A stretch of 36,703 nucleotides of DNA. It comes from Bacillota bacterium. Lineage in GTDB: Bacteria; Bacillota; Dethiobacteria; SKNC01. Where the stretch lies: assembly GCA_007121375.1 (NCBI GenBank), contig SKLX01000009.1:1-36703 (forward strand), read 5' to 3'. The position numbers and the translations under genes are program-made. How positions within the stretch are numbered: position 1 is the stretch's first letter; each line of letters begins with the position of its first letter. Shown here one piece after another: positions 21,194 through 35,482 of this stretch. The notes below the pieces were generated by a model. The model was given only the letters and a program-made list of their open reading frames with translations. It was not told the origin of the DNA and did no database searches.

Positions 21194-22309
21194 TTAAAAC
21201 TCCACCGTTGTTTTAAGCTGCTCCTTCTCCCTGAACCTCTCCAGAGCCAGGTTAATTAACCGGTCCAGAAGTTCCCCATAACTAACCCCGGAGGCCTCCC
21301 AGAGTTTGGGGTACATGCTCACCTGGGTAAACCCGGGTATGGTGTTGATCTCGTTAATAATTATCCTGTTAGTTTCCTCTTCCACAAAGAAATCTACCCG
21401 CCCCATACCTGACCCGTCCAGGGCCTTAAAGGACTCAACTGCCATTTCCTGGACCCGGGAGGCTGAAGAAGAGTCCATTTCCGCAGGTATATATAAAAGA
21501 GAACGGTCGTCAAGATACTTGGCCCGGTAATCATAAAACTCATTACAGGGGACTACCTCCCCGGGGAGGGAAGCCAGGGGCTCATCATTTCCCAGGACGC
21601 TTACTTCTATTTCCCGTCCACGAATAAATTCCTCTATAACAATCTTGCGGTCATACTGGATCGCCTCCTCAATGCCTCTCAGGAGTTCCTCCCTGCTTTT
21701 AGCCTTGGAAATTCCCACGCTAGAACCCAGGTTACAGGGCTTAACAAAGCAAGGATAACCCAGTTTTCTTTCCACCTTATCCAGGTAGTATTCCCGGTCC
21801 TTTTCCCATTCTTTCCTTAGAAAATATAAATATTTACCCACGGGAAGGCCCCTTTGTTGAAAAACCATCTTCATTATCGCCTTATCCATGCCGGCACTGG
21901 CTGCCAGCACTCCAGGGCCCACATAGGGAATACCTGCCAGCTCCAAAAGCCCCTGGACGGTACCGTCTTCCCCGTAGGGACCGTGGAGAACAGGAAAAAC
22001 CACCTCTAACTTCTCCACCTCCTTTGAAGGAGAAGGGCTTTCCCCCCCCTCCCGGGGAAGCTTTACAAACCCTCCCACCTCCGGGTCGGGAATAATTGCA
22101 ATGGGATCATTGCCTTCCAGGGAACCACCCTGGGCAAGGTCCTGGATAACATTTTCCCCTGTAAACCAGGCCCCTTTCCGGGTAATTCCTATGGGTATAA
22201 TTTCATACTTTTCTTTATCCAGGGCATCTGTAATAGAAGCCGCTGACTTAAGGGAAACCTCATGTTCTCCTGAACGTCCACCGCAGAGGACTCCTACCTT
22301 TAATTTCAC
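21194..22309 (-). CDS. ddl: D-alanine--D-alanine ligase
   Basis: Motifs seen: KVGVLCGGRSGEHEVSLKSA, VFPVLHGPYGEDGTVQGLLE, and the ATP-grasp C-terminus (EINTIPGFT). The GTG at 22309 has GGAGGTG 6 nt upstream. The track ORF is extended by 23 aa to 22378. Confidence 0.9.
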   Translation of the reverse strand: MKLKVGVLCGGRSGEHEVSLKSAASITDALDKEKYEIIPIGITRKGAWFTGENVIQDLAQGGSLEGNDPIAIIPDPEVGGFVKLPREGGESPSPSKEVEKLEVVFPVLHGPYGEDGTVQGLLELAGIPYVGPGVLAASAGMDKAIMKMVFQQRGLPVGKYLYFLRKEWEKDREYYLDKVERKLGYPCFVKPCNLGSSVGISKAKSREELLRGIEEAIQYDRKIVIEEFIRGREIEVSVLGNDEPLASLPGEVVPCNEFYDYRAKYLDDRSLLYIPAEMDSSSASRVQEMAVESFKALDGSGMGRVDFFVEEETNRIIINEINTIPGFTQVSMYPKLWEASGVSYGELLDRLINLALERFREKEQLKTTVEF

Positions 22310-22376
22310 CTTACCCACCTCCAATACTTTATACCATTTATATTTATGCCAAAACATTATCTTTAAAACCCTTATC

Positions 22377-22416
22377 AAAAAACGCGAACCTGGGAAACAT
22401 CCCGTTCGCGTTTTTT
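22377..22416 (-). terminator. Strong rho-independent terminator after the EF-G paralogue (A-tract/T-tract flanks, potentially bidirectional)
   Basis: A perfect 9-bp stem AACGCGAAC / GTTCGCGTT with a 14-nt loop. The minus strand continues TTTTTTGAT. It begins 6 nt after the stop codon. Confidence 0.8.
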
Positions 22417-22421
22417 ATACC

Positions 22422-24506
22422 TTACTCCTCTTCCCCTTCTTTAGATGCTTCAATAATTTTTTTGGCAATATGGTCGGGGACCTCTTCGTAGCGATTAAAC
22501 TCCATGGTAAAAAAGCCCCTTCCCTGGGTCATGGACCTCAAGTCAATGGCATAACGGAACATTTCCTCCAGGGGTACCTGGGCTTTAATTATCTGTTTTC
22601 CATCCAGGGGTTCTGTACCTATTATCCTGCCCCTCTTGGAATTAATATCTCCCATGATGTCCCCCATATATTCTTCAGGTACCGTAATATCCACATCCAT
22701 AATGGGTTCTAAAAGGACGGGCTTGGCCTTTTCCATCCCCTTTTTAAAGGCCATAGAAGCAGCAATCTTGAAAGCCATCTCCGAGGAATCCACTGTATGA
22801 TAAGAACCATCATAAAGGACAGCCTTAATCTCAGTAACAGGGTTTTTAGCCAGAATCCCTTCCTCCATGGCTTCCCTAATACCCTTTTCTACAGCAGGAA
22901 TATACTGCTTGGGCACTGCACCTCCAAAAATCTTATCTTCAAATTCAAACTCTTCTCCCGAGTCCAGGGGAGCAATTTCCAGCCAAACATGGCCAAACTG
23001 CCCTCTGCCTCCCGATTGTTTCTTGTGCTTTCCTTCTATTTTAACCGTCTCCTTAATAGCTTCCCGGTAGGGAACCTTGGGTGAATCCAGTTCTACCTCC
23101 ACCCCAAACTTCTTGGCCAAGCGGCTGCATACAATATCCAGGTGCAGTTCTCCCATTCCCCATAAAAGGTTCTGCTTGGTTTCGATATTTTTTTCTACTT
23201 TAAGGGTGGGGTCTTCATCCAGGAAACGGGTTAATCCAGCAAAGACCTTCTCCTCTTCTCCCTTGGTCTTTGGTTTTACTGCATAAGAAATTACCGGGGA
23301 GGGGAAGGTAATGGGCTCCAGCACCAGGGGACTGGCCTTATCACAGAGGGTATCTCCCGTAGTAGTTTCCGCCAGCTTGGCCACCGCGGCAATATCTCCC
23401 GCCACCGCCTCTTCTAAGGATATCTGGGTTTTCCCCCTCATGATGAATACCTGGGCCAACCTTTCATTTTTTCCTTTGTTAGCATTATAAACCTGAGAAT
23501 CCGATTGAATTTTGCCGGAAAAGACCTTGAAGAAGTTAATTCTTCCCACATAGGGGTCAGCCAGTGTTTTAAAAACCAGGGCAGAGGTGGGTTCCTCCAC
23601 GCTTATCTGACGGGTGGTCTCTTCCTCTTCACAGCCAGGAACCCTCCCCTTAACTTCTCCCACATCAGCAGGAGAGGGTAAACAATAGTTAATCAAGTCC
23701 ATGAGGGGCTGGCTGCCAATGTTGCGGGTAAAAGCTCCACACAGGACCGGAACCACTGCCCCTTCCCGGGTCCCAGTTTTCAGGCTGTCCTTAATCTCTT
23801 CGTCGGTAAGGGGTTCCCCCTCCAGGTACTTCATTAAAAGCTCATCGTCCGTCTCCGCCAGGGACTCCATCATCATTTCCCGATAGGTTTCCACCTGGTC
23901 GGAAAGTTCCCCGGGGATTTCTTCTTCCTTTACCTCCCTGCCATCTTCGCTGAAGGTAAGGGCTTTCATCTCCACCAGGTTAACCATACCCTTAAAAGAG
24001 CTTTCCTGGCCGATAGGAATTTGTACCGGAATAACCTTCGTGCCAAAATTTTGCCGGAGCTGCTCCAGGGCTTCACTGAAATTGGCGTTTTCCCGGTCCA
24101 CCTTGTTAATAACCACCATCCGGGGCATTTCGTAATCATCAGCATATTCCCACACCTTTTCTGTGCCCACTTCCACCCCTGAAGCGGCACAAACTACTAC
24201 TATAGAAGCATCGGCTACCCGCAGGGCCGCATGGACTTCTCCTACAAAGTCAAAATAGCCCGGAGTATCCAGAATATTAATCTTCATATTATTCCATTCG
24301 CAGGGCGCCAGGCTGGTATTGATGCTCATCTGTCTTTTGGTTTCCTCCGGGTCAAAATCACTGACGGTGGTACCGTTTTCCACCTTTCCCAGGCGGTTGG
24401 TAACCCCCGAGGTAAATAAAAGGGCCTCCGTCAGAGATGTTTTGCCAGCCCCTCCGTGAGAAATAAGGGCCGTGTTTCTAATGCTGCTGGTTTCGTATGT
24501 TTTCAT
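22422..24506 (-). CDS. Elongation factor G paralogue (EF-G II-like translational GTPase) with a divergent GTPase centre
   Basis: 694 aa, with the five-domain EF-G layout. G1 is SHGGAGKTS (canonical AHIDAGKTT). Switch I is EETKRQMSI (canonical EQERGITI). G3 is DTPGYFDF (canonical DTPGHVDF). G4 is NKVD. Domain IV (YDGSYHTVDSSEMAFKIA) is conserved. RBS AAGGAGG. Confidence 0.85.
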   Translation of the reverse strand: MKTYETSSIRNTALISHGGAGKTSLTEALLFTSGVTNRLGKVENGTTVSDFDPEETKRQMSINTSLAPCEWNNMKINILDTPGYFDFVGEVHAALRVADASIVVVCAASGVEVGTEKVWEYADDYEMPRMVVINKVDRENANFSEALEQLRQNFGTKVIPVQIPIGQESSFKGMVNLVEMKALTFSEDGREVKEEEIPGELSDQVETYREMMMESLAETDDELLMKYLEGEPLTDEEIKDSLKTGTREGAVVPVLCGAFTRNIGSQPLMDLINYCLPSPADVGEVKGRVPGCEEEETTRQISVEEPTSALVFKTLADPYVGRINFFKVFSGKIQSDSQVYNANKGKNERLAQVFIMRGKTQISLEEAVAGDIAAVAKLAETTTGDTLCDKASPLVLEPITFPSPVISYAVKPKTKGEEEKVFAGLTRFLDEDPTLKVEKNIETKQNLLWGMGELHLDIVCSRLAKKFGVEVELDSPKVPYREAIKETVKIEGKHKKQSGGRGQFGHVWLEIAPLDSGEEFEFEDKIFGGAVPKQYIPAVEKGIREAMEEGILAKNPVTEIKAVLYDGSYHTVDSSEMAFKIAASMAFKKGMEKAKPVLLEPIMDVDITVPEEYMGDIMGDINSKRGRIIGTEPLDGKQIIKAQVPLEEMFRYAIDLRSMTQGRGFFTMEFNRYEEVPDHIAKKIIEASKEGEEE

Positions 24507-24551
24507 CTAATTCCTCCTTACTAATCAGTAATATTTAAAAGAAGAAAGCTT

Positions 24552-25055
24552 TTATTCTTTTTCCGCCAATTTTCCTTTGACGTAGTCAATCAATCCCCCT
24601 GCCCTGATGATTTCCTGCATAAACTCCGGAAAGGGGGCCGCATAAAATTTTTCTCCCGTGGTCTCGTTTTGTATGATTCCCTTCTCCAGATCCACTGAAA
24701 CCTCATCTCCTGGAGAAATCTTTTCCGCGGCTTCAGGAGATTCCATAATGGGAAGCCCGATGTTTATGGCGTTCCGATAAAATATACGGGCAAAGGAGTC
24801 GGCAATGACACAGGATATCCCCGCCTCCTTGATGGACAGGGGAGCATGTTCCCGGGAGCTGCCACAACCAAAGTTTTTCCTGGCTACTATTATATCCCCT
24901 TTGTTAATCTTATTGAAAAATTCCGGGTCTGCATCCTCCATGCAGTGCCGGGCCAGTTCCTGGGGGTCAGAAGTGCTCAGGTACCGGGCGGGAATAATAA
25001 CATCCGTGTCCACGTCATCCCCAAACTTCCAGGCTTTTCCTCTGATGTCCGCCAC
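24552..25055 (-). CDS. leuD: 3-isopropylmalate dehydratase small subunit (short, archaeal-type LeuD)
   Basis: 167 aa, containing [15 protein letters not shown] and GCGSSREHA. The GTG start directly follows the leuC stop, with GAGGAGGTG upstream. Confidence 0.9.
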
Positions 25056-26318
25056 TTACAACACCTCCTCGGGGGAACATATTTTTCCGGCCACTGCCGA
25101 GGCTGCTGCTATTGCCGGGTTGGATAAGTATACTTCACTTTCCGGGTGGCCCATCCGCCCTACAAAGTTCCGGTTAGTGGTGGCCAGGGCTTTTTCCCCT
25201 TTGGCCAGGACTCCCATATGGCCTCCCAGGCAGGGTCCGCAGGTAGGGGTGCTTACTGCCCCTTCCGCTTCAATAAATATGTCTATAAGGCCTTCCCTTA
25301 AAGCCTCCTGGTAAATCTTCTGGGTGCCCGGGATTACAATAAGGCGCACCCGGGGGTCCACCTTCTTGTTCTTCAATATCTCCGCCGAAACCCTCAGGTC
25401 TTCCAGCCTTCCATTGGTGCAAGACCCTATAATCACCTGGTCCAGGGGAATCTCCTCCACCTGGCTTATTCCCCGGGTGTTTTCGGGCGAGTGGGGAAAG
25501 GCCACCTGGGGCTCAATTTCCCCCACCTGGAATTCAATTACCTGGGAATAGCTGGCATCCCCATCACTGAAAAGTCCCCGGAAACTTCTCTGGGCCCTGC
25601 CCTCCAGGTAATTATAGGTTATCTCATCGGGTTCAATAATACCCGCCTTGGCTCCCGCTTCTATGGCCATATTGCTCATGGTAAGGCGCCCATCCATACT
25701 CATGTTCCTGATGGCAGGACCGGTAAACTCCATAACCTGGTACAGGGCCCCATCCACCCCGATCTGTCCAATGGTAAAGAGGATCAGGTCCTTTCCGCTT
25801 ACCCACTTCCTCAATTCTCCCTGGTAAACAAACTTGATGGTAGAAGGTACCTTGAACCAGGTTTCCCCCAGGGCCATGGCCGCTGCCATATCAGTACTGC
25901 CAATACCTGTCGCCAGGGCTCCCAGGGCACCATAAGTACATGTATGGGAATCGGCCCCGATTATAATCTCCCCGGGCAGGGTAAGGCCCAGTTCCGGTAG
26001 CAGGGCATGCTCTATTCCCATCCGTCCAATCTCAAAATAGTTTTTAATCTTCTGTTCCCGAGCAAACTCCTTTAATATTTTAGCCTGCTCTGCTGAAGGA
26101 ATATCCTTGTTGGGAGTGAAATGATCGGGAACCAGGACAATCCTCTCGGGATCAAATACCTTTTCCACCCCTATCTTCTTAAACTCTCTTATGGCCACGG
26201 GAGCGGTTATGTCATTTCCCAGGATCAAATCCACCCGGGCTTTTACCAGTTCCCCCGGCTTAACCTTATCCTTGTCTCCGCGACTGGCAATTATCTTCTC
26301 CGCCACGGTCATCCCCAT
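25056..26318 (-). CDS. leuC: 3-isopropylmalate dehydratase large subunit (short, ~420 aa type)
   Basis: The aconitase-family Cys ligands are GADSHT, GSCTNGR and CGPCLG. The ATG at 26318 has GAGGTG 6 nt upstream. This start overlaps the leuA 3' end by 53 nt. Confidence 0.9.
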
Positions 26319-27840
26319 AAAGCCCACCTCTTTTCTTCACAATCTTGTTAATAGCGTTAATATAAGCTTTTACGCTGGCTTCCAGTATGTCGGTACTTAC
26401 TCCCCGTCCGCTGATGATGTTGCCGTTATCCGTCAGGCGTATATTGACTTCTCCCAAGGCATCCCTGCCTCCTGTGACCGCCTTAATGGAATAATCCATA
26501 AGTTTGGTCTGTATGCCCGTGATCCGGTCTATGGTCCGGTACATGGCATCCACCGGGCCTCCGCCACAGGCAGCTTCCTCTATCAGCTCCCCTTCCCTTA
26601 TAATCCCCACAGTAGCCGTGGGACGGAACTTGTTCCCGGTAAAAATCTGGAAGTAGGAAAGCTGGTAGTATTCTGGGACTTTCCGGAGCTCTTCTTCAAT
26701 AATAGCCTCCATTTCATGCTCCGATACTATCTGTCTTTTGTCAACCAGGTCTTTAAACCGTTCAAAGAGCTTTTGTAATTCCTCCTCGGATAATTTCTCA
26801 AATCCCATCTCCTTTAATTTTATCTTAAAGGCATGCCTGCCTGAGTGTTTGCCCAGGACTATCCGGTTATCCAGCAACCCTATGGACTCAGGCTTCATAA
26901 TTTCATAGGTTGATTTCTCCTTCAGGACCCCGTCCTGGTGAATCCCCGATTCATGGGCAAAGGCATTTCTCCCTACCACCGCCTTGTTGGCCTGAACCAG
27001 CATGTTGGTCAGCTTACTTACCAGGCGGCTGGTGCGAAAAATATTTTTCTGGTTTATGTTGGTGCTGTAATACTGGTAAAAATCAGCCCGGGTAGCCAGG
27101 GTCATTACCAGTTCTTCCATAGCAGTGTTCCCGGCCCTTTCTCCAATCCCGTTAATGGTACATTCCACCTGGGTTACACCCTTTTCAATGGCTGCCAGGG
27201 AGTTGGCCAGGGCCAGGCCCAGGTCGTTGTGGCAGTGAACACTTAAGGTTATTTTATCTGTAGCGGGAACCTTTTCCCTGATCCTTTCAATAAGCTGCCC
27301 GAACTGCTGGGGAACCTGGTAACCTACCGTGTCGGGAACATTTATTACGGTGGCCCCTGCCTGGATAACCCGTTCAATTACCTGGCAGAGAAAGTCCAGG
27401 TCCGAACGGCTGGCATCCTCCGCCGAAAACTGTACATCCTCCACGTATTTTTTGGCATACTTAACCCCCGCCTCAGCCATTTCCAGAACTTCTTCCCGGG
27501 TTTTATTTAATTTATATTTTAAATGAATGTCTGAAGTGGCGATGAAGGTATGTATGCGAGGACGCCGGGCTTTTTCCAGGGACTCCCAGGCCGTGTCAAT
27601 ATCCTCCTGCCTGGTCCGGGCCAGGGCTGCAATAACCGGCTCTTTAACATTCTCGGAAATCAGCTTTATGGCCTGGAGATCCCCGGCGGAGGTTATGGGA
27701 AATCCCCCTTCTATAATATCTACCTTTAATTTTTCCAGGTTCCTGGCAATTTCTAGTTTTTCTTCGGGACACAGGTTAACTCCCGGGGACTGCTCCCCGT
27801 CCCGAAGGGTAGTATCTAGAATTTCGATTATCCCCGGCAT
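26266..27840 (-). CDS. leuA: 2-isopropylmalate synthase (a citramalate-synthase function cannot be excluded by eye)
   Basis: 524 aa. Motifs seen: [32 protein letters not shown], and the C-terminal LeuA-dimer/regulatory domain. RBS AGGAGG. Confidence 0.85.
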
Positions 27841-27852
27841 GGCCCTTTCCTC

Positions 27853-28851
27853 CTAGGTTCTCTTGATAATCCAGCTCATCATTCCCCGCAGCTTCTGCCC
27901 CACCTTCTCGATGAGGTGCTCCTCATCCTGCCGGTTCAGGGCATTGAACACAGGGCGGTTGGCCTGGTTTTCCAGGATCCACTTTTTAGCAAACTCCCCG
28001 TTTTGAATTTCTTCCAGGAGCCTTTTCATTTCTTTACGGGTTTCTTTATTTACAATCCTTTTCCCACAGGTCAGGTCTCCATACTGGGCCGTATCACTTA
28101 TGGAATAGCGCATCCCCGAAAGACCCCCCTCGTATATAAGGTCCACAATGAGTTTTAGCTCGTGGAGGCATTCGAAATAAGCCACTTCCGGCTGGTAGCC
28201 CTCCTCCACCAGGGTGTCAAAACCAGCCTTAATTAGCTCCGATACCCCGCCGCACAGGACCGCCTGCTCCCCAAAGAGGTCCGTTTCCGTTTCCTCCTGG
28301 AAGGTGGTTTCAATGACTCCCGCCCGGGTGCAGCCTACACCCTTGGCATAAGCCAGGCCCAGGTCTTTAGCCTTACCGGTAAAATCCTGGTACACCGCCA
28401 GGAGCCCGGGAACTCCAGTGCCCTCCTGAAAGGTCCGACGAACCAGGTGGCCAGGGCCCTTGGGGGCTATCATAAAAACATCCACATATTCGGGAGGCAC
28501 AATCTGTCCAAAGTGTATATTAAAACCGTGGGAAAAAACCAGGGCATTTTCTTTTCCTAAAAAGGGGGCTATAGAACTGGTGTATACCGCCCTTTGTATT
28601 TCGTCATTAATAAGTATTTGAATCATGTCCGCTTCTTTAGCGGCTTCCTCCGTATTTAAAACCTTAAAACCATCTTCCTCCGCCCTTTCCCAGGCCTCAC
28701 TGTGGGGAAGTTCACTGATAAGGACATCTATTCCTGAATCCCTCAAGTTCTGGGCCTGGGCATGACCCTGGCTTCCGTAGCCAAGAATGGCAACCTTTCT
28801 TTCCTTTAACCCTTCTAAATTGGCATCTTCATCATAATACATTTTAACCAC
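27853..28851 (-). CDS. ilvC: Ketol-acid reductoisomerase
   Basis: Motifs seen: [21 protein letters not shown] and class I KARI blocks. The GTG at 28851 gives [11 protein letters not shown] (compare B. subtilis MVKVYYNGD) and has an SD 5 nt upstream. Alternatives are the ATG at 28842 or the track start at 28869. Confidence 0.95.
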
Positions 28852-29359
28852 TTTTACCACCCTCTCCATTCATTTTAATAAACTTAACACCCCTCATCAT
28901 GGCAATCTTTCCGGTGCGGACCAGCTCCTGGATACCAAAGTGCTTGAGGAGCAGCTCAAAGGCCTTTATCTTTTCCTCATCTCCGGTGACTTCTACAATT
29001 ATGGAATCCAGGGAAACATCCACTATTTTAGCCCGAAAGGTTTCTACCAGCTGCTGGAGCTCGGCCCTCATGGAGGGTTCTGCCTTAACCTTGATAAGCA
29101 CCAGTTCCCGGTTTACGGTAGATTCATTAGTCAGGTTGCTTATCTTTACCACATCTATAAGCTTATTAAGCTGTTTAATAACCTGCTCAATGACCTTTTC
29201 ATCACCCTCTACCAGAATGGTCATCCGGGAAAGATCTTTATCTTCGATTTCTCCTACGGCGATGCTGTCAATATTAAATCCCCTCCGGCTGAAAAGACCT
29301 GCTACCCGGGTAAGGACTCCCGGCCTATTTTCTACAATAACTGACAGGACATGCCTCAT
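28844..29359 (-). CDS. ilvN: Acetolactate synthase small (regulatory) subunit
   Basis: 171 aa. The ACT domain begins [32 protein letters not shown]. The gene overlaps ilvB by 4 nt (ATGA). Confidence 0.9.
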
Positions 29360-31035
29360 TTTGTACCCCCTCCTAATATCTTGTTGATGGGGCTGGCAGG
29401 AGGAACCATGGGAAATACATTTTCCTCGGGCACCACCTGAAAATCTATAAATACGGGCCTATCATTAATTTCCATGGCCTTTTCCAGGGCAGGGACAACC
29501 TCCTGGGGCTTGGTAACCCGGATTCCTGCTGCTCCGTAAGCCTCCGCCAGCTTAACAAAGTCGGGGCTCCCTTCCAGGCAGGTTGAGGAATAGCGCCGCT
29601 GGAAAAAGAGTTCCTGCCACTGGCGAACCATTCCCAGGAACTGGTTATTGATGATGGCGACCTTGATGGGAAGTTTGTTGCATACAGCGGTAGCTATTTC
29701 CTGGGAGTTCATCTGTATGCTGCCGTCTCCAGCTATACAGAAGACCTTTTCCTGGGGGCATCCCACCTGGGCCCCAATGGCGGCAGGGAAACCGTAGCCC
29801 ATGGTGCCCAACCCTCCTGAAGAAATAAGGCTCCTTGACCTTTTAAATTTAAAATACTGGGCCGTCCACATCTGGTGCTGCCCCACATCAGTAGTAATTA
29901 TGGCCTCCCCATCGGTAATTTTGCAGATCTCCTGGATTATATGCTGGGGTTTTAATTCTTCCTGGGAGAAACTATAGGTCAGGGGATACTCTTTTTTCCA
30001 TCTCCCTATCTGTTCGACCCATTCCTCCGTTTCTCCTTTTTTCAACTTTTTTAGCATTTGTTCTAAAACCCGCCGGACGTCACCCACAATGGGTACGTCT
30101 ACCTCCACATTTTTGCCGATCTCCGCCGGGTCAATATCTATATGAATAATCTTGGCATGGGGAGCAAAACTGTCTACCCTACCCGTAACCCGGTCATCAA
30201 AACGCATCCCAATAGCAATGATCAGGTCTGCTTCGGTAACGGCATAATTGGCATAGACCGTTCCGTGCATACCCAGCATCCCCAAGAAAAGGGGGTGTCC
30301 CCCCGGAAAACTTCCCAGGCCCATCAGAGTATTGGTTACAGGGATCTGGCCTATCTCCGCTAGCTTGATAAGTTCCTCCTGGGCTCCCGAGCTTACCACT
30401 CCTCCTCCGGCACAGATAACAGGTCTTTTGGCCTCTTTGATAACCCGGACAGCCCGGTTAATCTGGCCTCCATGCCCCGTGTAGGTAGGTTTGTAGCTCC
30501 GCAAATCCACCTTTTCCGGGTATTTAAAATCCGCCTCCTGGGCCAGTACATCCCGGGGGATATCCACCAGGACGGGTCCCGGCCTCCCCGTAGTAGCTAC
30601 ATAAAAGGCTTCCTTTAATATTTGAGGGATATCCCTGGTTTCTTTTACCAGGTAGTTGTGCTTGGTAATAGGCAGGGTAATTCCTGTAATATCCGCTTCC
30701 TGGAAGGCATCGGTGCCGATAAGATTTGCCGGAACCTGGCCCGTCAGGGCAACAATGGGAACGGAATCCATATAGGCATTGGCAATTCCTGTTACCAGGT
30801 TAGTGGCTCCCGGCCCCGAGGTGGCAATGCAAACCCCCGCCTTTCCCGTAGCCCGGGAATAACCGTCGGCAGCATGGATTCCTCCCTGCTCATGGCGGGG
30901 CATTATGTGGGTTATATCCGCATCGTAGAGGGCATCATAGAGGGGAAGAACCGCTCCCCCGGGATATCCAAAAACAACATCCACATTTTCTCTCTTTAAG
31001 GCTTCAACTACCATCATGGCCCCCTTAATTTTCAT
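29356..31035 (-). CDS. ilvB: Acetolactate synthase large (catalytic) subunit
   Basis: 559 aa. This is a ThDP enzyme, with the motif [15 protein letters not shown] and the N-terminus [25 protein letters not shown]. Confidence 0.95.
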
Positions 31036-31039
31036 ATCT

Positions 31040-32710
31040 TTATGTCACCTCCCTTTTAAAAATGGCTCCGGTACTGGCTGAACTAACCAGTCGGCTGTAC
31101 CTGCCCAGGTATCCCCTTTCATATTTAAAGGGAGGCAGTTTCAGCTCCTTTAACCGCTTATCTATTTCTTCCCCGGTAAGCTCCACTTCCAGCTTACGCC
31201 CCGGGATATCAATCTTAATCAGGTCCCCCTCCTCCAGGGCAGCTATAGGTCCCTTTTCCATGGCCTCAGGGGATACATGGCCTATAGAAGCTCCCCGGGT
31301 GGCTCCGGAAAACCTGCCGTCGGTAATTAAAGATACCTCCCGGTCCAGGCCCATGCCCGCCAGGGCAGAAGTAGGACTCAGCATCTCCCTCATCCCCGGT
31401 CCTCCTTTTGGCCCTTCAAAGGCAATAACTACAACATCTCCGGCTAAAATCCGGCCATCCAAAATGGCTTTGGAAGCCTCTTCTTCCCTTTTAAAAATGC
31501 GGGCCCGCCCCTGGTGCTTCATCATTTCCGGTGCCACGGCTCCTTGCTTGACCACAGCTCCTTCGGGGGCCAGGTTTCCCATGAGGACCGCTATCCCCCC
31601 GTGCTCGCTGTAAGGATCTTCCACGGAACGGATGACCTGGGGATTTAAAATTTCCCCCTTCCCCAGGAGTTCCTCCATGTCCTTACCCCCGGCGGTCATA
31701 ACTTTTCCGTCAATCAAACCGTGCTTTAAAAGCTCCCTCAGTACTGCCGTAACACCCCCGGCAGCCCTTAAGTCCTGGATATGATGGGGACCGGCGGGGC
31801 TGAGTTTACACAGCTGGGGGGTCCGGGAGCTTACCCGGTCTACCAGCTTCAAGTCCAGTTTAATGCCTGCTTCATGGGAAATGGCGGGAAGATGAAGTAT
31901 GGTGTTGGTAGAACCTCCCAGGGCCATATCCAGGGCCAGGGCATTCTGGAAAGCCTCTTCCACCAGGATATCCCCCGGCAGTATTTCCCTTTCTAAAAGC
32001 TCCATAACCTTCATCCCCGTTTCCTTGGCCAACCGGTACCGGGCCCCTTCCACGGCAGGTATGGTTCCGTTCCCAGGAAGGGCCATTCCTAAGGCCTCCG
32101 TCAGGCAGTTCATGGAGTTGGCGGTAAACATTCCCGCGCAGGAACCGCAGCCGGGACAGGCAGCCTCCTCCAGCTGCTCCAGTTCCTCAAAAGTCATATT
32201 CCCGGCTTTAACGGCTCCCACCCCTTCAAAAACATTGCTCAAATCCACCTCTTTATCTTTAAACCTTCCTGCCATCATGGGTCCTCCGCTTACAAAAAGG
32301 GAGGGAATATTTAAGCGAGCAGCAGCCATAAGCATCCCGGGGATTATCTTATCGCAGTTAGGAATAAATACCAGGGCATCAAACCCGTGGGCCATAACCA
32401 CCGTCTCAATGGAATCGGCTATTAACTCCCGGCTGGGCAGGGAAAAATACATCCCTTCATGGTTCATGGCAATTCCATCACACACCCCTATGGTTGAAAA
32501 CTCCTGGGGAGTTCCTCCCGCCATGTAAATCCCCGCCTTAACTCCCTTGGCAATTTCCCCCAGATGAATATGCCCGGGAATTATTTCATTAGCGGAATTC
32601 ACCACTCCCACCAGGGGACGTTCCATCTCCTCCCTGGTATATCCCATAGCATTAAAAAGGGAACGATGGGGAGCCCTTTCCAGGCCCTTCTTGACTCTGT
32701 CGCTTCGCAA
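31040..32710 (-). CDS. ilvD: Dihydroxy-acid dehydratase
   Basis: Motifs seen: [25 protein letters not shown], and the Fe-S Cys residues. The TTG at 32710 has GAGGAGGGTG 6 nt upstream. The track ORF starts at an earlier TTG at 32728. Confidence 0.95.
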
Positions 32711-32752
32711 GCTTTTCACCCTCCTCAAAACTATTATAGTTTTATTCGTCCT

Positions 32753-33631
32753 TTATTCATAAATGGGTGTTCCGTTATTCATAACGTAATCATTGAAAGC
32801 CCTCATTATGTCACAGGTTATTTTGCCCGGCTTGCCGTCGCCGATCTCCCGCCCGTCTACATCAATTACAGGTATAACCTCGGCAGCTGTTCCCGTTAAA
32901 AAACACTCGGAGGCCACATAGAGGTCGTGGCGGGTAAAGGGCCTTTCCAGAATGGTATAACCCTTTTTAGCCGCCAGTTCCATAACCACTTCCCGGGTAA
33001 TGCCCTCCAGGGCTCCCACATAGGTGGGAGGAGTAATAATTTTCCCTTTACGCACTATAAATATATTGTCTCCCGATCCCTCCGTTATGTATCCGGAGCG
33101 GTTGAACATAATGGCCTCTAAAACTCCTGCCCGATTGGCTTCAATTTTTACCAGGATATTGTTCAGGTAATTCAAAGACTTAATCTTGGGATCCAGGGCA
33201 TCGGGAATGTTTCGGCGGGTAGCCACGGTAATTACCCTTAACCCCTCTTCATAATATTCCCGGGGATAAATGGATATCTTGCTGGCAATTATGACCACTG
33301 TAGGCCTGGGGCACTTCTGGGGGTCCAGGCCCAGGTCTCCCACTCCCCGGGACACTACTATTCGAATATAAGCATCCGTCAGTTCATTCCTACGCAGGGT
33401 CTCCAGGACCGCCTCTTCCATTTCCTCCAGGGTCAGGGGAATAAAAAGCATGATTGATTTAGCCGACTCGTAAAGCCTCACCAGGTGTTCCGTCAACTTG
33501 AATACCCTGCCGTTGTAAGTCCTGATCCCTTCAAAAACCCCATCTCCGTAAAGATAACCATGATCAAAAACGGAAACCCTTGCTTCCTCCCGGGGCACCA
33601 GTTCCCCATCAATATACACAAGCTCCTGCAT
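32753..33631 (-). CDS. ilvE: Branched-chain amino acid aminotransferase (fold type IV)
   Basis: Motifs seen: VSVFDHGYLYGDGVFEGIR and ..LEGITR.. . The ATG at 33631 has GGAGGAGGTG 6 nt upstream. The track start (GTG at 33640) abuts the SD. Confidence 0.9.
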   Translation of the reverse strand: MQELVYIDGELVPREEARVSVFDHGYLYGDGVFEGIRTYNGRVFKLTEHLVRLYESAKSIMLFIPLTLEEMEEAVLETLRRNELTDAYIRIVVSRGVGDLGLDPQKCPRPTVVIIASKISIYPREYYEEGLRVITVATRRNIPDALDPKIKSLNYLNNILVKIEANRAGVLEAIMFNRSGYITEGSGDNIFIVRKGKIITPPTYVGALEGITREVVMELAAKKGYTILERPFTRHDLYVASECFLTGTAAEVIPVIDVDGREIGDGKPGKITCDIMRAFNDYVMNNGTPIYE

Positions 33632-33660
33632 CAGTTGCACCTCCTCCGATAATAATTTGA

Positions 33661-33701
33661 TAAAAATAAAACCTTTCGCCCGGTGCTTAAGGGGCGAAAG
33701 G
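33661..33701 (-). terminator. Intrinsic terminator (attenuator) of the T-box leader
   Basis: A 10-bp stem CCTTTCGCCC / GGGCGAAAGG with a 10-nt loop, then TTTTATTTTA on the minus strand. Its 5' arm can instead pair with the T-box sequence (GCGAAA/TTTCGC) to form the antiterminator. Confidence 0.8.
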
Positions 33702-33927
33702 ATTATTTCGCGGTACCACCCTTATTACCCTGGCATACAAAACCAGGGCCTCTTCAGGTTAAACCCCTGGATAACGGCCAGGCCGGCTCCGCTTACTAAA
33801 AGTTCAGCGGGCAGCTCCAGGGTGACTTGGAACCCGAGCAAGGCACCGGTTTCCCAGCTATTCACCGGCTCTCTGTATCCTGTGCTCCGGCCTACTTGTC
33901 CCCTTCACAGCTTTTTTTCAAAAAATT
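33661..33927 (-). promoter_or_regulatory. T-box riboswitch leader of the ilv-leu operon, apparent specifier GUC (Val)
   Basis: All canonical elements occur in order on the minus strand: AGUA (caAGUAgg), AG box AGAGAG, distal loop GCUGGGA, specifier loop CCAAGUCA (GUC at 33824-33826, followed by A), AGUA-II, F-box CCGUUA, stem III CCCUGG...CCAGGG, the T-box GGGUGGUACCGCG (33709-33720), and the terminator. Confidence 0.85.
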
Positions 33928-33933
33928 TTTTTA

Positions 33934-33962
33934 ATTATAAACTAAAGGGGACCCTTTGTCAA
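33934..33962 (-). promoter_or_regulatory. Consensus sigmaA promoter of the ilv-leu operon (-35 TTGACA, 17-nt spacer, -10 TATAAT)
   Basis: Both hexamers are perfect and the spacing is optimal. It lies directly upstream of the T-box leader. Confidence 0.75.
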
Positions 33963-33991: not shown

Positions 33992-35482
33992 CTAGATAGG
34001 ATAACCTATAGTCCTGCCTTCCTTATCCTTCACTGCCATGGCGGGATCGATGCTGCCAATTTTTTCTAAATTAAGGTCCGCTGCCTCCGCCTTTTCTTCC
34101 TCCCGGGCTTCCTTACCCGGGGCCCCATGTAAGGGAGGCTCCAGGCCCTTTCTCCTCTTGAAAAAGGCTTCTGCCACCTGGGGGAATATGGCATAAGTAA
34201 TGGCATCCTCTTCCTTTTCCATGAGATCTTTAATGGCCTCCCGGGATTTTTCCATCTCTGGAGGCAAGTTATCCGCCGGCCGGTTGGTAATAGGTTCTTC
34301 CTCCTTTAAGACCTTTTCTTGCAGCTCTTCGTTCATGGGTGCCGGAGGCTGACCGTAAAGACCCTTCAAATAGTTTTTAACCTCCGTGGAAACCATTTTA
34401 TAGCGCTCGCCCATAATCACGTTTACCACCGCCTGGGTTCCCACAATCTGGCTGGAAGGAGTAACCAGGGGCGGATATCCCAGGTCAGCCCTGACCCGGG
34501 GGACTTCCTCCAGAACCTGGGACAATAGGTGGGTAGCGTTTTGCTCTGCCAGCTGGGATACCAGGTTAGAGATCATGCCTCCCGGCACCTGGTAGGTTAA
34601 TACGTTAGTATCGACTCCCAGGGCTACATCTACAGGTATAACATAATTCTTTCTGATTTCCTTGAAGTGGTTGCTTACCTGGAGTAAAAGCTCCTGGTCC
34701 AGCTCCGTATCGTAAGGAGTCCCCCTGAGGGCTGTCACCATGGTATCCGTGGGAGGTTGAGAAGTTCCCAGGGATAAGGGAGAAGAAGCCGTATCTATCA
34801 CATCCACTCCTGCCTCAATAGCCTTCAGGTAGGCCATGGAGGCCATTCCGCTGGTGTAGTGGCAGTGAAGCTGAATGGGAATATCAACCGCTTCTTTAAG
34901 CTGCCCAACCAGTTCGTAGGCATCATAAGGGGAAATCAGCCCCGCCATATCCTTTATGCAGAAGGAATCGGCACCCATTTCTGATAGTTTCCTGGCTATA
35001 TCCACAAAGTGGGCAATATCATGGTAGGGGCTTATGGTATAGCTGACAGTGGTCTGGGCATGAATCCCCACCTTTTTACATACCTCCAGAGCCTTTTCCA
35101 TGTTGCGCACGTCATTCAAGGCATCAAAAATGCGGATTATATCCAGCCCACATTCTGCCGTGTTTTTAATAAAGGCCTCCACCACATCGTCGCCATAGTG
35201 GCGGTATCCCACCAGATTCTGCCCCCGCAGGAGCATCTGCAGTTTGGTGTTCTTTAAATGCTTTCTTAAAATCCTCAGGCGCTCCCAGGGATCCTCATCC
35301 AGAAAACGCATGCAGCTGTCGAAGGTGGCTCCTCCCCAAACCTCCAGGGAGTGATAACCCACCTGGTCCATCACTTCCAGGATGGGAACCATTTCTTCCG
35401 TCTTCATCCGGGTGGCCATCAGGGACTGGTGAGCATCCCTGAGGCTTGTATCGGTAATCAAAACCTTCCTTTTTTCCGTCAA
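33992..35482 (-). CDS. Carboxyltransferase of the oxaloacetate decarboxylase alpha / transcarboxylase 5S / PycB family, lacking a biotinyl domain
   Basis: 496 aa. The N-terminus ITDTSLRDAHQSLMATRM...LEVWGGATFD matches the family, and HCH metal ligands are present. No AMKM biotin motif occurs in the C-terminal 60 aa. TTG start, with GAAGGGGTG 8 nt upstream. Confidence 0.85.
   Translation of the reverse strand: MTEKRKVLITDTSLRDAHQSLMATRMKTEEMVPILEVMDQVGYHSLEVWGGATFDSCMRFLDEDPWERLRILRKHLKNTKLQMLLRGQNLVGYRHYGDDVVEAFIKNTAECGLDIIRIFDALNDVRNMEKALEVCKKVGIHAQTTVSYTISPYHDIAHFVDIARKLSEMGADSFCIKDMAGLISPYDAYELVGQLKEAVDIPIQLHCHYTSGMASMAYLKAIEAGVDVIDTASSPLSLGTSQPPTDTMVTALRGTPYDTELDQELLLQVSNHFKEIRKNYVIPVDVALGVDTNVLTYQVPGGMISNLVSQLAEQNATHLLSQVLEEVPRVRADLGYPPLVTPSSQIVGTQAVVNVIMGERYKMVSTEVKNYLKGLYGQPPAPMNEELQEKVLKEEEPITNRPADNLPPEMEKSREAIKDLMEKEEDAITYAIFPQVAEAFFKRRKGLEPPLHGAPGKEAREEEKAEAADLNLEKIGSIDPAMAVKDKEGRTIGYPI

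Follow-up and report, generated by a model that had tools for sequence, protein, structure and literature searches.

Judged from its sequence, the gene on the minus strand at positions 22422-24506 of contig SKLX01000009.1 (assembly GCA_007121375.1, a member of the class Dethiobacteria) encodes an elongation factor G (EF-G) paralogue of the EFG II (EF-G2) type and is an ordinary member of a known family. The whole 36,703-nucleotide (nt) stretch analysed is referred to here as the window, and the gene as EFG2. The genome carries a canonical fusA elsewhere, and EFG2 follows an ilv-leu operon headed by a T-box; in the genus to which the window belongs, the gene appears to be expressed by read-through from this operon. 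We assign this explanation as a whole a probability of roughly 0.8.

22422-24506, minus strand: EFG II / EF-G2-type EF-G paralogue, 694 amino acids (aa) (P0001; translation, Pfam, NCBIfam and clade placement)

EFG2 is an uninterrupted open reading frame (ORF) of 694 codons, and its product has the five-domain architecture of EF-G, with all of the corresponding Pfam domains (GTP_EFTU, EF-G_D2, EFG_III, EFG_IV and EFG_C). An initial annotation of this DNA had listed the motifs SHGGAGKT, RQMSI and DTPGYFDF together with a conserved domain IV, and each of these is found on translation: G1 is SHGGAGKT, switch I is ETKRQMSIN, G3 is ILDTPGYFDF and G4 is NKVD. The nucleotide-binding motifs (P-loop, DxPG and NKxD) are intact, the His of the P-loop is retained, and so is the Arg of switch I. 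The domain IV tip loops (KHKKQSGGRGQFGHV and YDGSYHTVDSSEMAF), which reach into the decoding centre, are conserved and closely resemble those of canonical EF-G. The switch-I Thr is replaced by Ser, the catalytic His by Tyr, and the P-loop Asp that contacts the sarcin-ricin loop (SRL) by Gly.

An exhaustive HMMER search over 1.84 billion cluster representatives provided 150 diverse best matches (50%-identity clusters) with which the protein could be compared. In a FastTree phylogeny of 152 sequences, seven sequences with both the catalytic His and RGITI, including the fusA product of the same genome, are split from the other 145 with an SH-like support of 100, and the window protein lies deep inside this non-His group. 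The tree holds no named EFG II anchor, and the link to named EF-G2 proteins comes from a PDB search with residues 8-125 (G1-G3). The best match in this search is Thermus EF-G2 (1wdt, 112 bits, DAPGYGDF), followed by the Mycobacterium protein (9k0z, 103 bits, DTPGYADF); that of Bacteroides (7uvp, DCPGSDDF) scores 93 bits. These three characterised EF-G2 proteins and mitochondrial EF-G2 are the top matches, while canonical EF-G proteins score 87 bits or less.

The sequence markers described for EFG II by Margus et al. (2011, PMC3150367) are largely present. In this family RGITI is relaxed to xxxSx, taking the form RxxSI in the Clostridia subgroup, and the window protein has RQMSI. The last P-loop position (25 in 1WDT) is Leu in 99% of EFG II proteins and Thr in EFG I: GKTSL of the window protein aligns with GKTTL of 1wdt, and the canonical EF-G of the same genome has GKTTT. 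The Lys-Lys pair at positions 471-472 (domain IV loop I) is likewise found, in KHKKQSGG, as compared to KFIKQTGG in the genome's own EFG I. Finally, EFG II is described as always co-occurring with another EF-G, usually the EFG I of the str operon (PMC3150367), and such a gene is present on another contig (C176) of the same assembly. The separate clade, the EF-G2 structures at the top of the G1-G3 core search and the majority of the markers are all in agreement with the EF-G II class to which the initial annotation had assigned the gene.

C176 carries the gene order rpsL-rpsG-fusA-tuf, and the EF-G that it encodes (AHIDAGKT, RGITI, DTPGHVDF) is 48% identical to the EFG2 protein; the window copy is not, then, the only EF-G of this genome. 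The assembly comprises 1.64 Mb in 218 contigs and is about 90% complete. Across the class, 37 of 41 genomes gave two matches to the EF-G family, and the other four, which are less complete assemblies, gave one each.

The replacement of the catalytic His by Tyr is the norm in this family and no peculiarity of the window gene. Among the 120 closest homologues (63-100% identity; named sources Dethiobacter, Ca. Contubernalis and Bacillota), G3 always consists of DxPG followed by Tyr (106) or Phe (15). In the 150 representatives, the residue after DxPG is Tyr in 62, Phe in 31, another non-His residue in 31 and His in 11 (in the remaining 15 the motif pattern is unmatched), and eight of the 11 with His are canonical proteins with AHIDAGKT and RGITI. 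Tyr also occupies this position in the Thermus and Mycobacterium EF-G2 proteins, and for the latter the replacement has already been described (Y98 of M. smegmatis EF-G2, MsmEF-G2; bioRxiv 10.64898/2026.05.25.727771). The emphasis originally placed on this substitution as a special feature of the gene is therefore not upheld.

The operon upstream of EFG2 lies on the same strand and is headed by a T-box and a perfect promoter sequence. The features of this region are, in the direction of transcription:

33934-33962, minus strand: candidate operon promoter, TTGACA-17-TATAAT (12/12 matches; promoter scan)
33687-33917, minus strand: T-box leader (RF00230, 120.3 bits against a gathering score of 93; alignment)
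25056-33640, minus strand: ilvE-ilvD-ilvB-ilvN-ilvC-leuA-leuC, the body of the operon (Pfam and NCBIfam equivalog matches for each ORF)
24552-25055, minus strand: leuD, the last biosynthetic gene of the operon (TIGR02084, 261.5 bits, above cut-off)
24507-24551, minus strand: leuD-EFG2 spacer, 45 nt (sequence; terminator and promoter scans)
22376-22417, minus strand: intrinsic terminator directly 3' of the EFG2 stop codon (RNA fold -23 kcal/mol, z = -4.29, U run)
21194-22378, minus strand: ddl (D-Ala-D-Ala ligase), the conserved downstream neighbour (NCBIfam NF002526, 474 bits)

Since leuD ends at 24552, the gap to EFG2 is 45 nt, and within it a Shine-Dalgarno sequence (AAGGAGG, 24513-24519) stands 6 nt ahead of the ATG. 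No hairpin followed by a U run was found in this spacer, and a promoter scan of minus-strand positions 24507-26327 (the spacer together with leuD/leuC) detected no sigma-70-like site. The sigmaH-like pattern occurs 12 times in the window but not upstream of EFG2 in the same interval, and its excess over shuffled sequences probably reflects the purine-rich coding strand. One AGGA...GAAT-type match over the leuD stop codon, AAAGGAAAA-N9-AAAGAATAA, was rejected: it is weak, its spacing is about 2-3 nt short, and it is unconserved in a contig from a different sample (L125) that encodes a 93%-identical protein. This contig has the same junction with a 42-nt spacer, which indicates that the tight spacing is no assembly artefact. 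The local anatomy given by the initial annotation (a 45-nt gap with its own Shine-Dalgarno sequence, no terminator or recognisable promoter between leuD and EFG2, and a strong terminator after EFG2) is thus borne out. The 3' side of the T-box specifier loop reads CCAAGUCA, from which the specifier is apparently GUC (Val). The operon has the order ilvE-D-B-N-C-leuA-C-D and is without leuB or ilvA (24552-33640).

Related loci were examined in 40 genomes, from which 30 loci representing six families of the class were obtained, with LeuC, LeuD and Ddl placed by tblastn. The order leuC-leuD-EFG2 is present in 22 of 29 Dethiobacteria relatives, usually with ddl and pdxS next, so the adjacency of leuD and EF-G is conserved. 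The gap is different: in 21 of the 22 leuD-bearing relatives it measures 99-547 nt (15 nt in L030), and a gap of 42-45 nt that lacks terminators and promoter-like sites alike is confined to the window genus. Six gaps (L013, L019, L023, L025, L026 and L029) contain strong hairpin-plus-U terminators (-16 to -20 kcal/mol), located after leuD or after a small ORF. A 40-aa CxxC...CxxC zinc-ribbon ORF (MAFWxCxQCGxEREARCKPKKCPxCEE...) is found between leuD and EFG2 in seven relatives (L024:1339-1461 (+) and L021:1329-1460 (+); also L010, L025, L026, L027 and L035). It shows weak similarity, below cut-off, to the rubredoxin-like domain PF21349, and could possibly be a small partner of EF-G2; a search for it in the window genome gave only a chance-level match (E = 0.84).

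Many of these gaps also contain promoter-like sequences. Loci of family f2 have TTGCAA-17-TATAAT-type sites ahead of EFG2, and a relative with a 78%-identical protein (L126) has a T-run and then TGcTATAAT. A conserved block, GAGAAATATTAAcAGtCTGAGcAGGAwww-N12-rGTCGAAGT, stands about 60-90 nt before the EFG2 start in family f4 and in L023, L028 and L035 (L013:3571-3691 (-), L019:1380-1500, L025:1380-1500 and 11 more in alignment A2); AGGA and TCGAA are invariant in this alignment, with fixed spacing. Each of the five genomes searched for this block has a single copy, at the EFG2 gene and nowhere else. It is present with or without leuD upstream, and is absent from the window. Promoters recognised by sigmaH in Bacillus and Clostridium have the form AGGAwwt ... 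GAAT, and against this textbook consensus the block looks like a sigmaH-like promoter with an adjacent A/T-rich site. An RNA structure was also considered from the alignment, but hairpins are inconsistent between the aligned sequences, for which reason the promoter reading is preferred. No known RNA elements were detected by Rfam in the leuD-EFG2 gaps of 20 relatives' loci. In most Dethiobacteria, EFG2 would accordingly seem to have its own promoter-like region, putatively sigmaH-like or sigmaA-like. Two loci (L011 and L014) have a gap of about 462 nt that includes, between leuD and the conserved block, an apparent short opposite-strand ORF and a strong palindromic hairpin (GCAAACAGCTGCCCC...GGGGCAGCTGTTTGC).

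The ilv-leu operon itself is not constant at this site. In three relatives (L017, L018 and L038) it is missing, an oadA/pycB-like carboxyltransferase gene directly precedes EFG2, and EFG2 has its own promoter-like site; in L009 the gene upstream of EFG2 is ilvC. An oadA-like gene is also present in the window, upstream of the T-box (33992-35482). The occurrence of oadA or ilvC directly before EFG2 in some relatives points to a conserved backbone, oadA-[ilv(-leu)]-EFG2-ddl-pdxS, in which the biosynthetic operon is a variable insert. The T-box ilv-leu operon behaves as a present-or-absent cassette within an oadA-EFG2-ddl-pdxST backbone. Beyond the class, 80 loci were obtained when one genome per species was scanned; about 40 of them have a non-His paralogue, and leuC, leuD or ddl was not found within 3 kb of any of these paralogues except in two Dethiobacteria-like metagenome-assembled genomes (L045 and L046), in which all three genes are nearby. 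With regard to ddl in the window, the listed ORF begins with TTG inside the EFG2 terminator; the NF002526 match starts at residue 24 and relatives align from residue 35, suggesting that the true start is probably about 20-35 codons inside this ORF.

As the 42-45 nt gap lacks both a terminator and a promoter-like site, read-through is plausible in the window genus, and we consider transcription from the T-box operon to be the most likely source of EFG2 mRNA there, with fair though limited confidence. An ancestral private promoter region would have been deleted in this lineage, reducing the gap to 42-45 nt without a terminator; transcription of the T-box-controlled ilvEDBNC-leuACD operon would then run on into EFG2, and the level of EFG2 would be tied to uncharged tRNA, apparently tRNA-Val. 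The initial annotation had suggested such gating by the T-box, but as a conserved design it fails, given the 99-547 nt gaps with terminators, promoter-like sites or a small ORF in 21 of the 22 leuD-bearing relatives, the three relatives without an ilv-leu operon at this site, and the missing leu/ddl link outside the class.

The anatomy of the relatives also favours a different source of the mRNA, in which EFG2 is transcribed alone from an unrecognised promoter in the 3' part of leuD or leuC, the T-box is irrelevant, and the adjacency is simply inherited gene order. Nearly all relatives have promoter-like elements, often with a terminator, between leuD and EFG2, so that independent expression is probably ancestral, and the oadA-EFG2-ddl-pdxS backbone exists without the ilv-leu operon in the three relatives noted above. 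We nevertheless regard this as rather unlikely in the window itself, where minus-strand positions 24507-26327 hold no sigma-70-like or sigmaH-like site, the weak candidate at the leuD stop codon is incorrectly spaced and lacks conservation in the 93%-identical relative, and transcription arriving from leuD meets no terminator.

For the protein itself, the retained motifs and tip loops make binding at the ribosomal A site most likely, with a function as an auxiliary translocase or as a regulator of the ribosome. It would bind GTP and the A site as EF-G does, and would serve in translocation or in the regulation of the ribosome when growth slows, in line with the EF-G2 proteins of Bacteroides and mycobacteria. 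The replacement of the catalytic His by Tyr and of the SRL-contacting P-loop Asp by Gly would be expected to alter, slow or abolish GTP hydrolysis, in keeping with the characterised members of the family. These members do not behave alike. MsmEF-G2 (Y98) has minimal GTPase activity, and the H88Y mutation nearly abolishes that of EF-G1 (bioRxiv 10.64898/2026.05.25.727771). Thermus EF-G2, which also bears Tyr, keeps both GTPase and translocation activity (PMC3150367; bioRxiv 10.64898/2026.05.25.727771), and Bacteroides EF-G2 translocates without GTP hydrolysis, according to work cited in PMC12775393. As one Tyr-bearing EF-G2 is active and another nearly inactive, Tyr alone is no predictor of a dead enzyme.

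The mycobacterial protein, for which no recycling activity but a regulatory role under stress is reported (bioRxiv 10.64898/2026.05.25.727771), ranks second among the matches to the G-domain core and has Tyr at the catalytic position. A non-translocating, ribosome-binding regulator of the anti-association or hibernation type has been proposed for it, and EFG2 could be of this kind. We think this improbable for the window protein, which shares a P-loop His and a switch-I Arg with Thermus EF-G2 (GHAGSGKT, as opposed to GPSGGGKT in MsmEF-G2), has domain IV tip loops similar to those of canonical EF-G, and has as its best match the Thermus protein, which is reported to translocate. More remote still is a ribosomal protection protein of the Tet(M)/Tet(O) type or a recycling-only EF-G resembling spdEFG2 or mtEF-G2 (the mitochondrial protein). 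Such paralogues also occur outside the str operon, and weak NCBIfam tet_protect matches were obtained, but NF012153 gives 349 bits, short of its cut-off of 775, and the Tet(M) and Tet(Q) models fall far below theirs; on these scores a protection role was rejected. Recycling factors keep the catalytic His and RGITI (mtEF-G2 has RGITI and DTPGH in the 7l20 alignment), making a recycling-only role unlikely, and EFG2 is inherited vertically across the class without a mobile-element context.

Several observations weigh against an EFG II translocase expressed by read-through. Over the full length, the score of the window protein is higher with canonical EF-G (673 bits) than with Thermus EF-G2 (535 bits); such closeness agrees with a remark by Margus et al. 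(2011, PMC3150367), who count the Clostridia subgroup with the least diverged branches of EFG II. The Gly at 1WDT position 16, conserved in 86% of EFG II proteins (Ala in EFG I; PMC3150367), is Ser in the window protein (ISHGGAGKT); the marker holds for most EFG II proteins without being invariant, and about a sixth of the 150 representatives also have Ser or Ala here. The GTPase status of the protein is not readable from its sequence, as Tyr-bearing relatives differ. With respect to expression, the gap anatomy suggests that relatives mostly transcribe EFG2 independently, so T-box control, if real, would be recent and perhaps incidental, and a promoter of unrecognised type may lie inside leuD.

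The linkage to the operon would best be described as class-level synteny, mostly with independent transcription, the tight terminator-less junction being seen only in the window genus. The locus adds no new protein type, and its value is modest. Within one class, the same EF-G2 gene appears behind very varied regulatory inputs, be it a sigmaH-like or a sigmaA-like site, a zinc-ribbon peptide encoded alongside, or probable T-box read-through. If read-through does occur, the usefulness of EF-G2 during amino-acid starvation could be tested simply in the natural setting of the window genus. More tentatively, a starvation-type EF-G2 may have been rewired, losing its private promoter-like region and being captured by the T-box ilv-leu operon so as to be made when charged branched-chain tRNA is short; we hold this somewhat doubtful. 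Were it true, an alternative elongation factor would here stand naturally under the direct control of tRNA charging, as a GTP-sparing or regulatory translocase made specifically on shortage of charged branched-chain tRNA. Elsewhere, EF-G2 has been proposed to translocate slowly and independently of GTP (Bacteroides) or to act as a regulator under stress (mycobacteria).

Among named systems, the EF-G2 of Bacteroides thetaiotaomicron (7UVP / 8DMF; NF058620) is likewise a second EF-G without the catalytic His and is starvation-induced, but it differs in its motifs (DCPGSDDF and YGYSV), and membership of the window protein in this branch is ruled out by an NF058620 score of 633 bits, below the cut-off of 1000. 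M. smegmatis EF-G2 (9K0Z / 9K10) shares the Tyr (DTPGYADF) and a non-RGITI switch I with Ser, but lacks two residues that the window protein has, the His of the P-loop (GPSGGGKT) and the Arg of switch I. Thermus thermophilus EF-G-2 (1WDT / 2DY1) is similar in its catalytic-position Tyr, its P-loop His and GKTxLTEALL; it is shorter (665 aa), with the weaker full-length match given above. GTPase activity and poly(Phe) synthesis are reported for the Thermus protein in the literature. The Clostridia sub-subgroup of EFG II (PMC3150367) is also among the closest systems; the publication discusses neither loss of the catalytic His nor a branched-chain amino-acid operon context. The window protein differs from this sub-subgroup in having Ser rather than the usual Gly at position 16. 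As in the window genome, the gene of this sub-subgroup lies away from the str operon and encodes a second EF-G alongside EFG I, and the proteins share RxxSI (here RQMSI), the Leu of GKTSL, a positive domain IV loop I (KHKK), DxPG and NKxD.

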